Notes under the pieces: model-generated
What the model was told of the DNA's origin: nothing
The model's input: only the letters and a program-made list of their open reading frames with translations
Database searches by the model: none
Shown: positions 1 through 5,671 of the stretch, one piece after another
Numbering within the stretch: the first letter of the stretch is position 1
Layout of the letters: each line of letters opens with the position of its first letter
Position numbers and translations under genes: made by a program
From: a virus
DNA length: 5,671 bases
IMG/VR virus record: IMGVR_UViG_3300045988_012439
Strand: one strand, 5' to 3'

Positions 1-119
1 ATTTTTTTTGTCACGTATCCTGCAACATATCGATAGGTTTCTGGAACTGCTTGCGCTATCTGTATTTGACCCATTCCCCACAGACCTTCTAGCCATTCAC
101 TGGTATAGTATCCGTTGTG
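1..119. repeat. Terminal redundancy, left copy; identical to 5553-5671 (circular contig overlap)
   Basis: Base-by-base comparison shows 1-119 equals 5553-5671 with no mismatch. The offset of 5552 gives the unit genome length. Confidence 0.97.
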
Positions 120-662
120 ATGAATTTTGTATAGATTTTTTAGGTCTGTTGGTTTCCAGCCGTATAGAATCATGTGATAATGTGGTCTCGCTGTCTGCTC
201 TCCGTACTCACCGGCCACAAAATAGCGTAATTTGCCCCTGTAAGCCTTTCTGAGGCGTTTTAAGAATTTTTGAATATCTTCATACAGCAAAATTTGAACA
301 CTGCTAGGGCGCTTCTCTCCCGGCTTCCACGTGTATTGTACCTTTCGTATGATTTCTCCCGTTTTTACTATCATGCCCGGTACATGTTCATCGTCATAAG
401 TTAGTGTTATAAACCAAACTTCTTCTTTTGGATAGTCTCGCGCTTCTAATTCGATTCTTGTCGTCCAATCTTCCTTTTGCCTGATTCTGCATCCAATACA
501 CTGCCCGCATGGTATTAACATGACTTTCGGATTATACATCAAATCTTCATATTTTAACTGTTTCCCGCTTAATTGAGAAAAGCGGGCGAGAGAATACACC
601 CGCCCGCTGATTTCTTTATTATCCGGGTTGTACAGCCTTATTAATGGCTTGTAACAACTCAT
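1..662 (-). CDS. Replication initiation protein VP4 (HUH rolling-circle endonuclease), 5' part. This covers aa 1-220 of a 339-aa ORF that continues across the circular junction to 5195.
   Basis: Hand translation from ATG 662-660 gives [66 protein letters not shown]... It contains a CGQCIGC cysteine cluster, motif 1 FITLTY (413-396), HUH motif PHYHMILY (HYH at 182-174), and motif 3 YVAGYVTKK with two Tyr spaced i/i+4 (29-6). These match phiX174 gpA and gokushovirus VP4. The frame is continuous with listed ORF 5195..5626 after subtracting 5552. GGTGA lies 8 nt upstream of the ATG. Confidence 0.92.
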
Positions 663-4319: not shown

Positions 4320-4703
4320 CTACACCCCCTTTCTGTATCGTTCTTCACGCACATCCACGTGCGTAAAATTTGTGTATCTGATTACTCCGCCCTGTTTCAT
4401 AATGCTGTCTGCGTATTTTGCGACTTCTCTGCTGCTGTGTCCTTTCACTATGATATCTGCTGCCATTCCTTTGCAGTGGTAACTGTTTGAGCTTCCATTT
4501 ACTTTGCTGTTCCAGCTTGGTGTTCTGTATCCGCTGTTGATGATGACCGGTGCGTTGAAGTGACTTCTGATTGTTTCCAAGACTTCGAGTAGTTCAGGTG
4601 CCCATAAGAATTCTTTTGTTTTGTCTTTGCATCTAAACTCCTTTGCTTTGAAGTGCTGCGTTAATTGGTCGTTGTTTGTTTGGTTTAAGATTGCTGTACT
4701 CAT
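4320..4703 (-). CDS. Zinc D,D- or L,D-peptidase, M15 family (Peptidase_M15_3/M15A-like); putative endolysin (127 aa from ATG 4703)
   Basis: The motifs are SGYRTPSWN, SYHCKGMAAD (H-x6-D, with His at 4478-4476 and Asp at 4457-4455) and THVD (His at 4361-4359). Together these are the LAS/M15 zinc-ligand arrangement. ATG 4703 has AGGTGA 7 nt upstream and lies just downstream of the promoter. The listed 154-aa version begins at a TTG upstream of the -10 box. Confidence 0.85.
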   Translation of the reverse strand: MSTAILNQTNNDQLTQHFKAKEFRCKDKTKEFLWAPELLEVLETIRSHFNAPVIINSGYRTPSWNSKVNGSSNSYHCKGMAADIIVKGHSSREVAKYADSIMKQGGVIRYTNFTHVDVREERYRKGV

Positions 4704-4725
4704 TTTTTTATCACCTTTCGTTTTT

Positions 4726-4754
4726 TTTATATCATGCCCGGCTTGATAAGTCAA
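4726..4754 (-). promoter_or_regulatory. Sigma70/SigA-type promoter for the whole gene block. It has -35 TTGACT (4754-4749), a 17-bp spacer, and an extended -10 TGaTATAAA (4734-4726).
   Basis: Read directly on the minus strand: TTGACTtatcaagccgggcaTGaTATAAA. There is an A/T-rich UP-like tract upstream (4755-4778). The SD and ATG of the first gene lie ~10-25 nt downstream. Confidence 0.75.
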
Positions 4755-4807
4755 GGGTTTTTGAAAAAAACTTTTGACGTTCAAGTCGGATGCCCGCGGC
4801 AGGCGTT

Positions 4808-4909
4808 TTCAACATTTTCAACATAGTTTTCAACATTTCAACATTGTTAAACTTTAACACAACAGAGTGTTTCAACATTTCAACAAGTTTTCAACAAATC
4901 TTTCAACAT
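4808..4909 (+). repeat. Iteron-like array of eight direct copies of TTCAACA(T/A), arranged as two clusters of four
   Basis: Copies lie at 4808-4815, 4817-4824, 4829-4836, 4837-4844, 4871-4878, 4879-4886 (..AA), 4890-4897 (..AA) and 4902-4909. All have the same orientation. A degenerate copy, TTCAACTT, lies at 4956-4963. Confidence 0.9.
4845..4859. repeat. 15-bp palindrome TGTTAAA-C-TTTAACA between the two iteron clusters
   Basis: Perfect 7+1+7 dyad symmetry, read directly. Confidence 0.85.
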
Positions 4910-4916
4910 TCTTTTT

Positions 4917-4954
4917 AGTGCTTTTTCTTCGTACCAACGTAAAGAAAAAGCACT
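4917..4954. other. AT-rich stem-loop (13-bp perfect stem plus 3 bp after a 2-nt bulge, 4-nt loop)
   Basis: AGTGCTTTTTCTT (4917-4929) pairs with AAGAAAAAGCACT (4942-4954). CGT (4930-4932) pairs with ACG (4937-4939). The loop is ACCA. Confidence 0.8.
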
Positions 4955-4961
4955 TTTCAAC

Positions 4962-4970
4962 TTTTCCACA
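4962..4970 (+). promoter_or_regulatory. DnaA-box-like 9-mer TTTTCCACA
   Basis: It fits the relaxed consensus TTWTNCACA at all constrained positions and lies in the non-coding region next to the iteron array. A single such match has an appreciable chance expectation (~0.3 per genome). Confidence 0.35.
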
Positions 4971-5073
4971 TACTCTACTACTACGACTACAACAAGTTAT
5001 ATAATAAAGGCAAAGCGCTATCCCTTGAAGCGAAGCGAATAGGGATTACAGGGTAGAACGTACTCCCTATTTT

Positions 5074-5116
5074 ACCGTGCGCGTGTACGTGCGTTTCGCG
5101 CGTGCGCGTGCGCGGT
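5074..5116. repeat. GC-rich alternating pyrimidine-purine tract (19 nt + 18 nt, Z-DNA-prone). It contains the 10-bp direct repeat CGTGCGCGTG (5076-5085 and 5101-5110) and folds as an imperfect hairpin.
   Basis: 5076-5094 and 5097-5114 alternate strictly Y-R. Pairing i+j=5190 gives 14 Watson-Crick plus 5 G-T pairs around a TTT/GTTTC loop. Confidence 0.85.
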
Positions 5117-5143
5117 CTAACGCCTTAAGAATACGCTTAAATC

Positions 5144-5182
5144 AATAAAAAGCCCAGTACCTTACTTGATAGGTACTGGGCT
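5144..5182 (-). terminator. Rho-independent terminator downstream of Rep
   Basis: A perfect 12-bp stem joins AGCCCAGTACCT (5151-5162) and AGGTACTGGGCT (5171-5182), with an 8-nt loop. On the minus strand it is followed by TTTTATT (5150-5144). It starts 12 nt after the Rep stop codon. Confidence 0.85.
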
Positions 5183-5194
5183 AGGTGACACTAA

Positions 5195-5671
5195 TTACAA
5201 AATACCACTTTTTTTCGTTTGTTTTTTGGTGACACGTTCTTTGGTCTCTAAGACGGTTTTATAGTCTTGACCCTCTAGCTGTAGTCTCTTTTCTTTCATT
5301 GCGTTTTTTTGTCGGTTTTGCTTAATTCTCCACAATCTTTGTGGGTTTTCTGCTTCCATCTGTTTTTCATAGTATCTTGGAATTTGTGCCCGTTTTCCGT
5401 TGGTGCATTGAATGTAACCTTGTTGCCAGATTTCTGCTTTGTGCTCTTGATAGTAGTGGTCCCCAAGTCCTGGCTTTAAGCTCATGCATGCAAATGGTTT
5501 TGTTTGCCCTAGCTCGTAGTATTCGTTAGCCTTTTTCCCGTCTATTTCGTACATTTTTTTTGTCACGTATCCTGCAACATATCGATAGGTTTCTGGAACT
5601 GCTTGCGCTATCTGTATTTGACCCATTCCCCACAGACCTTCTAGCCATTCACTGGTATAGTATCCGTTGTG
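5195..5671 (-). CDS. Replication initiation protein VP4, 3' part (aa 181-339, stop at 5197-5195). 5553-5671 duplicates 1-119.
   Basis: The frame is open to the right edge of the window. The listed Met at 5626 is internal residue 197 of the full protein. The catalytic YVAGYVTKK motif lies at 5581-5558. Confidence 0.92.
   Translation of the reverse strand, partial: HNGYYTSEWLEGLWGMGQIQIAQAVPETYRYVAGYVTKKMYEIDGKKANEYYELGQTKPFACMSLKPGLGDHYYQEHKAEIWQQGYIQCTNGKRAQIPRYYEKQMEAENPQRLWRIKQNRQKNAMKEKRLQLEGQDYKTVLETKERVTKKQTKKSGIL
5553..5671. repeat. Terminal redundancy, right copy; identical to 1-119
   Basis: Same evidence as the left copy. Confidence 0.97.

Follow-up and report, generated by a model that had tools for sequence, protein, structure and literature searches.

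An oriC-like module of DnaA boxes, DnaA-trios and AT-rich DNA in the genomes of gut microviruses

Results

A DnaA-box array that continues into DnaA-trios

IMG/VR virus record IMGVR_UViG_3300045988_012439 is a stretch of 5,671 nucleotides (nt), here called the window, that was analysed over its full length. It represents a circular microvirus genome of 5552 nt with a terminal redundancy of 119 nt (1–119 recurring as 5553–5671), and all genes of this genome lie on the minus strand. The sole large non-coding region (5194–4704) separates the gene for the rolling-circle replication protein Rep (VP4) from that for an M15 peptidoglycan peptidase, and it holds eight copies of the motif TTCAACA, all on the plus strand, at 4808, 4817, 4829, 4837, 4871, 4879, 4890 and 4902. 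An initial annotation, made from the letters of the window, had drawn attention to this array and to its likeness to binding sites for the replication initiator DnaA. Our analysis confirms that observation and partly supports the interpretation then placed on it. We propose that the array supplies the boxes of a 205-bp module (4805–5009), which copies the host origin's basal unwinding system (BUS) and serves as a DnaA-dependent unwinding or origin module, a reading to which we assign a probability of about 0.6. The cassette is carried by about a hundred gut microvirus relatives.

Eight same-orientation copies had been judged too many for chance, and the counts agree. TTCAACA is absent outside 4808–4908 on either strand, as had been noted by eye, and shuffled sequence contained it 1.3 times on average and at most 5 times, with none of 200 shuffles reaching 8. 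The start-to-start spacings are as first reported (9, 12 and 8 in one cluster; 8, 11 and 12 in the other), with a step of 34 between the clusters; the argument that the sites therefore lie on one face of the helix is weak, since the spacings range from 8 to 12. When the scan was widened to the consensus TTWTCMACA with up to one mismatch and compared with 200 shuffles, the genome gave 17 matches against a shuffle mean of 6.6, and no shuffle reached 17. Ten same-strand boxes fall within 4806–4970, where they are arranged 4 + 4 + 2, and all five perfect sites of the genome lie in the same interval.

The repeats had been described as four copies, a palindrome and four further copies ending in a DnaA-box match at 4970. 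This layout is present in the window, with both the 15-bp palindrome and the box match in place, but it is partly incidental: the palindrome is broken in L005, L012, L081 and L121 (TTTAGCA) and in L031 (TTTATCA), and in other clades the spacer 1 sequences are unrelated to it. The perfect 13-bp inverted repeat in spacer 2 is common, among the contigs examined, only to L080. Neither is conserved, and we rejected both as functional elements. The boxes themselves stand, but the module does not end with them, because CTACTACTA and an AT-rich run extend it to about 5009. What had been missed is a tandem box pair followed by DnaA-trios and AT-rich DNA just beyond the reported array.

This order of elements is that of the BUS, which was defined in the Bacillus subtilis origin as DnaA-boxes 6 and 7, DnaA-trios and an AT-rich region (PMC8287927, PMC6669920). 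In a BUS, three or more trios lie within 16 bp beyond a DnaA box, which is commonly doubled in tandem; the spacer averages ~4 bp and 3'-GAT-5' is the commonest trio (PMC8287927). Four features were looked for: beside the trios, a box no more than 2 mismatches from the consensus; within 3 bp of it, a weaker tandem box of like orientation; three or more DnaA-trios (3'-NAN-5', usually 3'-GAT-5') no further than 16 bp from the box; and AT-rich DNA beyond. In the window, the proximal box TTTTCCACA has 0 mismatches to TTWTNCACA and 1 to TTATCCACA, and it is abutted by TTTTCAAC(T), a pairing conserved in 96 distinct cassettes. CTACTACTA, at 4975–4983, supplies three perfect trios 4 nt past the box and occurs nowhere else in the window, against a mean of 0.01 copies in shuffled sequence; trios 4, 6 and 7 depart from the canonical form. 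Downstream come CGACTACAACAAG and then TTATATAATAAA (4997–5008), a 12-nt stretch of 100% A+T, which is short. As read from the sequence, the window module has every BUS feature that can be looked for in this way, and the role of origin, one of several suggested at the outset, gains support from the combination of box pair, trios and AT-rich DNA.

Table 1. Positions of the cassette, its elements and neighbouring features in the window, and of the dnaA–dnaN spacers in four host assemblies
Feature	Position	Strand	Remarks
Whole cassette, oriC-like DnaA-box/DnaA-trio/AT-rich module	4805–5009 (205 bp)	boxes +; trios (5'-TAG-3') −, the gene strand	aligns with relatives as a block
Box cluster 1, four 9-mers	4806–4843	+	TTTTCAACA (4806), TTTTCAACA (4815), TTTTCAACA (4827), ATTTCAACA (4835)
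Palindrome TGTTAAACTTTAACA, 15 bp, in spacer 1	4845–4859		resembles two degenerate half-boxes
Box cluster 2, four boxes	4869–4908	+	GTTTCAACA (4869), ATTTCAACA (4877), TTTTCAACA (4888), CTTTCAACA (4900)
Perfect 13-bp inverted repeat AGTGCTTTTTCTT / AAGAAAAAGCACT in spacer 2	4917–4954		lineage-specific
Origin-proximal tandem box pair	4954–4970	+	TTTTCAAC(T) at 4954–4962 abutting TTTTCCACA at 4962–4970
Spacer TACT, 4 nt, proximal box to first trio	4971–4974	+	variable in relatives
DnaA-trio block CTA CTA CTA CGA CTA CAA CAA	4975–4995	−	3'-GAT GAT GAT GCT GAT GTT GTT-5'
AT-rich stretch GTTATATAATAAAG, candidate unwinding element	4996–5009		sequence variable in relatives and hosts, though AT-rich
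Promoter-like site TTGACT-N17-TG-n-TATAAA	4726–4754	−	upstream of M15 peptidase gene
GC-rich alternating purine/pyrimidine tract	5079–5116		two 15-mers, GCGCGTGTACGTGCG and GCGCGTGCGCGTGCG; 70% GC
Terminator-like hairpin and T-run	5151–5182	−	3' of Rep (VP4) gene; far edge of intergenic region
M15 peptidoglycan peptidase gene	4703–4320	−	ATG at 4703
VP1 capsid protein gene	3237–1564	−	
Rep (VP4) gene, rolling-circle	662..1 joined to 5552..5195	−	spans circle junction; ends 5195
dnaA–dnaN spacer, L196	1631–2496		24 TTCAACA, 0 canonical TTWTNCACA
dnaA–dnaN spacer, L169	4822–5116		9 TTCAACA, 0 canonical TTWTNCACA
dnaA–dnaN spacer, L147	1694–2332		12 TTCAACA, 5 canonical TTWTNCACA
dnaA–dnaN spacer, L164	6475–7748		23 TTCAACA, 8 canonical TTWTNCACA

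Boxes and trios are conserved and spacers are not

A megablast search against GenBank phages returned segment 4801–5007 as the sole DNA-level match in some gut gokushoviruses (H18–H20). A motif search of viral contigs found dozens of 5–6 kb microviruses with 5–8 copies each, whose VP1 proteins are 40–93% identical to that of the window. For a sample chosen independently of the motif, relatives were selected by VP1 alignment alone and the best 80 were kept (VP1 53–83% identical); the module is present in 74 of them, and the six others are four partial contigs shorter than 5.3 kb and two odd contigs of 7.2 and 8.8 kb. The module is absent from phiMH2K, Chp2 and SpV4, and no alternative repeat array was found in the cassette-less relatives or in these classical gokushoviruses. 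Cassettes follow a shared plan of cluster 1, ~30 nt, cluster 2, ~50 nt, the box pair, 4–5 nt, CTACTACTAC-NN-CTACAACAAG and AT-rich DNA.

Position by position, the 96 cassettes keep the box cores and the first three trios at about 95–100%, with variation in the spacers, in the fourth trio and along the AT-rich sequence. Conservation in related Microviridae, which had been named as the first thing to look for, is thus found in the boxes and trios and not in the DNA between them. The CTACTACTAC positions are 96–100% conserved and the next two positions 55–64%. Among the core positions, variation between C and A is confined to position 6 of the proximal box (C in 52%); the others are conserved at 89% or more. 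In L044, spacer 2 and the proximal pair are duplicated in tandem (...TTTTCAACTTTTCCACAGTC twice), which places two proximal pairs before the trios. After the trios, the CTACAACAAG tail is common to all microvirus cassettes and was not seen in hosts; its longer form CTACAACAAGTTA (4990–5002) is invariant across microvirus cassettes and is absent from the host origins and from the cassette ends of the two other phage contigs described below, as far as these were examined.

The boxes also vary in an informative manner. Where the window has TTTTCAACA, relatives carry TTTTCCACA or TTATCCACA at homologous box positions, as in the third position of cluster 2, which is TTATCCACA or TTTTCCACA in relatives. 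Because canonical and variant boxes swap at homologous positions, a single binder is indicated, and the comparison points to DnaA.

The same substitutions bear on Spo0A, which had been suggested because the unit reads TGTTGAA on the gene strand, one base from the 0A box TGTCGAA. An array of Spo0A operators would shut the phage down during host sporulation, the role played by the 0A boxes of phi29, and the Clostridia, the likely host class, include many spore-formers. The mismatch, however, hits the conserved C of the CGAA core, and TGNCGAA is missing from 4700–5200, and hence from the cassette, with two occurrences elsewhere in the window against 3.1 expected. Relatives carry TGTGGAAAA or TGTGGATAA at homologous positions, swaps that lead further away from the 0A box, and operators of this kind would leave the trios and the AT-rich part unexplained. 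We consider a Spo0A array extremely improbable.

The cassette matches the chromosomal origins of likely hosts

To find chromosomal counterparts, we took a single genome for each bacterial species and searched it for three copies of TTCAACA at spacings of 8–12 nt. Many matches proved to be plain tandem repeats (period 8, 9, 10 or 12) from unrelated phyla and were not considered further. Irregular arrays occurred in assemblies assigned to Oscillospiraceae, Ruminococcaceae, Ruminococcus and 'Clostridiales', and in four Oscillospirales metagenome-assembled genomes (MAGs; L147, L164, L169 and L196) such an array fills the spacer between dnaA and dnaN (Table 1). These genes were assigned by Pfam domains, Bac_DnaA and Bac_DnaA_C for the first and three beta-clamp domains for the second. 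In Firmicutes, the dnaA–dnaN spacer contains that half of oriC at which unwinding occurs. Microvirus VP1 and VP4 are encoded by none of the loci from the genome collection (L123–L242); the host loci are chromosomal origins and not prophages.

The likeness extends past the boxes. In L147, L169 and L196, in which the downstream end was read, the boxes end in a pair, after which come a short C-rich spacer, trios of the CTACTAC type and AT-rich DNA. The L147 array, for example, ends ...TTTTCAACAGTTTCAACA-CCCC-CTACTACTACTACTA, with CTACTACTACTACTA at the same place as the trios of the window. Because the L196 and L169 spacers hold TTCAACA arrays and no canonical box, TTTTCAACA is, to judge by these spacers, the main or only origin box of these Oscillospirales and not a degenerate form. 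The initial annotation, which had treated the unit as a DnaA box with one mismatch, was thus right about the link to DnaA and wrong about the status of the variant; host DnaA recruitment, one of the roles it named, is supported by the match to Oscillospirales oriC. We found no published description of TTTTCAACA as the main DnaA box of Oscillospirales. Small mixed clusters of TTCAACA, TGTTGAAAA and TGTGGAAAA were also seen beside conserved genes in two Oscillospiraceae MAGs (L136, ~1500–1700; L148, ~4400–4600), and these may be secondary DnaA-box clusters.

TTTTCAACA also fits the mollicute DnaA-box consensus TT(A/T)TC(C/A)ACA (PMC3322544). Although that consensus is a mollicute one, the phage encodes an M15 peptidoglycan peptidase, which implies a walled host and hence not a mollicute. 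Taken with the match in box variant and layout, the host group is likely to be the walled Oscillospirales.

Similar arrays in other viral contigs

Two non-microvirus viral contigs carry dense TTTTCAACA/TTTTCCACA arrays, L068 (39 kb; 1828–1975) and L084 (68 kb; ~1180–2200), and in both the arrays come with CTACTAC trios and AT-rich DNA. Genes for a tape-measure protein, Dit and other tail proteins adjoin the array in L068, which marks it as a tailed phage; the neighbours of the L084 array are without annotation. The similarity to the window is close, with 4805–4843 identical to the L068 cluster at 37 of 38 positions and to several L084 sites at 37 of 39. A scan of viral contigs for canonical TTATCCACA plus trios found large contigs with BUS-like sites and no further microviruses. 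Among these large IMG/VR contigs, L317 and L375 have TTATCCACATTATCCACA-GCCC-CTACTACTACTGC leading into AT-rich DNA and 9 boxes in the vicinity; these sites could be phage origins or host origins in viral bins. The plasmid collection gave only short, chance-like matches in Acinetobacter plasmids.

These matches weigh on the suggestion that the repeats are a binding array for Rep or a small phage protein, that is, iterons comparable to the pMV158 'bind' locus or to those of CRESS-DNA viruses. The cassette does consist of short direct repeats near an AT-rich site in the main non-coding region of a rolling-circle replicon, a placement shared with the iterons of pMV158, geminiviruses and circoviruses; VP5 of the window matches a PHROG annotated as a DNA-binding protein; and the microvirus-specific tail CTACAACAAGTTA could be a Rep site. 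Rolling-circle iterons, however, are Rep-specific and co-vary with Rep. The repeat of the cassette does not co-vary with VP4, being unchanged across VP4 identities of 40–95%, and it interchanges with canonical DnaA boxes. It recurs both in a tailed phage and between host dnaA and dnaN, where neither VP4 nor VP1 is present, and it equals the host oriC motif. VP4 and VP5 are moreover present in phiMH2K and Chp2, both of which are array-free. We regard phage-specific iterons as very improbable.

Inversion and relocation of the cassette

In five relatives (L006, L263, L264, L265 and L122) the cassette lies between VP4 and the peptidase gene but is inverted relative to them, the flanking sequences being unchanged in orientation, and in L030 (2640–2857) it is both inverted and relocated, lying between VP2 and VP4. 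Because it inverts and relocates against flanks of constant orientation, the cassette behaves as a discrete movable unit of ~200 bp.

Control of a downstream promoter, described as the only one, had been among the first suggestions. A plausible promoter-like site precedes the peptidase gene (Table 1), but a promoter scan of the window gave 6 weak sites against 9 expected from shuffles and did not list this TTGACT/TATAAA site. It is kept in L012, and other relatives have TTGACA-N17-TATAAT at a distance to the cassette that varies widely. With so variable a distance, and with the cassette inverted or relocated in six relatives, a promoter operator of fixed geometry is unlikely.

A broader alternative is that the boxes bind DnaA without firing an origin, as a sink that titrates the protein, and so lowers initiation in the host, or as a regulator that tunes phage transcription. 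DnaA is a transcription factor that can be titrated, and datA and the DnaA-box clusters of Bacillus do titrate it. Ten boxes per genome, multiplied by a multicopy replicative form, could act similarly, and cluster 1 lies ~50 bp upstream of the promoter-like site in the window. Yet a sink or regulator has no need of a proximal pair, of trios at a fixed 4-nt distance or of AT-rich DNA, which are the best-kept parts and which accompany the box cluster of the window. The variable promoter distance and the six inverted or moved cassettes weigh further against regulation. On balance, a sink or regulator is less likely than an unwinding module, though the box cluster may titrate DnaA.

The mobility of the cassette could also mean that it is a selfish or neutral fragment of a host origin that persists without serving the phage; it inverts and changes place as a discrete unit and also occurs in tailed phages. 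A 5.5-kb genome is, however, strongly constrained in size, and 74 of 80 relatives retain the module, with boxes and trios preserved and spacers free to vary, as expected under purifying selection. A passenger of this kind is highly improbable.

The strand and form of DNA on which the cassette would act

When either strand was folded alone, the boxes stayed unpaired, and the sole stable single-strand structure in the cassette was the non-conserved, box-free hairpin at 4917–4954. DnaA recognises its boxes in duplex DNA. As the boxes are unpaired in single strands and DnaA reads duplex, the module should act on the double-stranded replicative form.

This argues against a different use of DnaA, in which the cassette is a complementary-strand origin on the packaged single strand and DnaA bound to its 5'-TAG-3' trios nucleates a primosome in the manner of the ABC primosome. 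In about 95% of genomes the trios lie on the gene strand, which under the accepted Microviridae paradigm is the packaged one. An incoming strand must be converted by host proteins alone, and DnaA-dependent assembly of the ABC primosome at hairpins of E. coli plasmids has been reported. The complementary-strand origins of phiX174 and G4 and the ABC-primosome hairpins resemble the cassette in recruiting host factors to the non-coding part of a single-stranded replicon, but they act as folded single strands, whereas the boxes of the cassette are single-stranded in either folded strand and the only stable hairpin is neither conserved nor box-bearing. The cassette is also inverted in six genomes, and similar arrays occur in the two non-microvirus contigs, one of them a tailed double-stranded DNA phage. 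The published BUS, moreover, requires duplex boxes to load DnaA onto the trios (PMC8287927). We judge a single-strand origin to be quite improbable.

The window was also scanned by Hamming distance for the phiX174 origin, with the 18-mer CAACTTGATATTAATAAC and the cleavage decamer CAACTTGATA compared with shuffles. The best sites in the window had 6 mismatches to the 18-mer and 1 to the decamer, no better than shuffles and outside the cassette; no phiX-like origin sequence is thus detectable. The likeness of the CTACAACAAGTTA tail to the phiX174 origin is not statistically meaningful, and AACTTG sites in phiMH2K, Chp2 and SpV4 have no common context.

Other features of the window

The remaining genes, all on the minus strand, are three small open reading frames and those for VP5, the VP3 scaffold protein and the VP2 pilot protein. 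In most relatives the GC-rich alternating tract abuts the AT-rich end of the cassette; in the window ~65 nt with small hairpins (for example, 5038–5071) lie between the two. The single-strand fold of the tract region is unremarkable (z = −0.7), and the tract could be a Rep site, a complementary-strand origin or an unwinding boundary. A tRNA scan of the window found no tRNA, and an Rfam scan gave weak matches only, all outside the cassette. One of these, to Termite-leu RNA at 525–612 on the minus strand inside the Rep gene (25 bits against a gathering score of 51; E = 0.035), is probably due to chance.

Discussion

Our results place an array of DnaA boxes in a gut microvirus within a longer module whose architecture is conserved among relatives and matches the oriC of the likely hosts, the Oscillospirales. 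Host DnaA very probably binds the cassette, and it is reasonably likely that it also unwinds it; for any single use of the opened DNA further downstream, the odds are clearly against. In the mechanism that we envisage, the incoming single strand would first be converted to the double-stranded replicative form, on which, once supercoiled, host DnaA-ATP would fill the boxes. DnaA would then extend from the proximal box pair onto the trio strand and open the adjacent AT-rich DNA, as at oriC. The opened region could serve for loading of the host helicase and priming, leading to Rep-independent amplification or plasmid-like maintenance of the replicative form, or it could hand single-stranded DNA to the HUH-type phage Rep.

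Several points count against a DnaA-dependent unwinding module. The module is dispensable for the gokushovirus life cycle in general, since phiMH2K, Chp2 and SpV4 do without it, and microviruses already encode a rolling-circle Rep, so that a second initiation system is of no obvious necessity. Within the window only the first three trios are canonical, in CGA, CAA and CAA the central gene-strand base of the trio is not the conserved adenine, and the AT-rich stretch is short, about 12–14 bp. The invariant tail CTACAACAAGTTA may serve another function, for example as a sequence that Rep recognises or nicks; were Rep to nick inside the cassette, inversion would flip the packaged strand too, and the argument from inversion about the strand used would be void. 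Finally, the host boxes were assigned from their position rather than from footprints, and the claims of DnaA binding and unwinding derive from comparison of sequences.

Comparison with known systems helps to define what the cassette might be. It shares with the BUS the tandem same-orientation boxes, the spacer of ~4 bp, the run of at least three 3'-GAT-5' trios on one strand, the AT-rich DNA beyond and the further box clusters upstream, and the Oscillospirales dnaA–dnaN spacers show the same order and box type. It differs in belonging to a 5.5-kb single-stranded DNA phage with its own Rep, in its compression to ~205 bp with a short AT-rich part and an invariant extra tail, and in occurring in either orientation relative to the genes. 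Chromosomal oriC lies beside dnaA and dnaN, whereas the cassette lies between VP4 and the M15 peptidase gene; the cassette would thus work like a BUS yet is no oriC. The P1 oriR, pSC101, F and R6K origins have a few DnaA boxes flanking element-specific iterons for the plasmid Rep. They likewise are mobile replicons that recruit host DnaA through origin boxes, but the phage cassette has no separate iterons and copies the host unwinding system in full, trios included.

The closest functional precedent comes from Mollicutes. Spacers between dnaA and dnaN of 217–247 bp, with one or two boxes and AT-rich DNA, support autonomous plasmid replication in two Mycoplasma species, and in these oriC plasmids the AT-rich DNA beside the boxes is essential for replication (PMC4351888). 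The minimal oriC plasmids of Mollicutes, self-replicating in some species, are similar to the cassette in size and in their boxes and AT-rich DNA (PMC4351888), and the mollicute box consensus includes TTTTCAACA (PMC3322544). They differ in being laboratory constructs from chromosomes, whereas the phage cassette is natural and its host walled. Because such short spacers suffice for Mycoplasma oriC plasmids (PMC4351888), plasmid-like amplification from the cassette is plausible. One tentative and rather doubtful extension is that gut gokushoviruses are dual-mode replicons, with a portable mini-oriC opened by DnaA for minichromosome-like replication or maintenance and Rep for single-strand production. 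If so, the phages could persist in plasmid-like carriage in Oscillospirales and perhaps pass through spores, Rep would possibly act on DNA already melted by DnaA, single-stranded and tailed double-stranded phages that share a host group would trade the ~200-bp cassette as a mobile origin module, and the host could be read from its box variant.

A DnaA-dependent unwinding module is a known kind of element; a complete, portable and host-matched cassette of this type in a clade of rolling-circle single-stranded DNA phages appears to be new. Literature searches found no paper linking Microviridae or gokushoviruses to DnaA boxes, DnaA-trios or DnaA-dependent complementary-strand synthesis, in agreement with the initial view that such arrays are undescribed for Microviridae origins, and searches on the gokushovirus origin of replication returned virome surveys only.

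The module offers a concrete entry point to the start of gokushovirus replication, and it suggests that some rolling-circle phages also depend on the initiator of the cell. Dependence on DnaA would tie phage replication to the growth state of the host and could explain persistent, non-lytic carriage in the gut. The inversion and relocation of the cassette and its presence in a tailed phage suggest that origin modules move as units between very different viruses. In addition, the box variant and layout may allow sequence-based host prediction for an abundant and uncultured group of phages.

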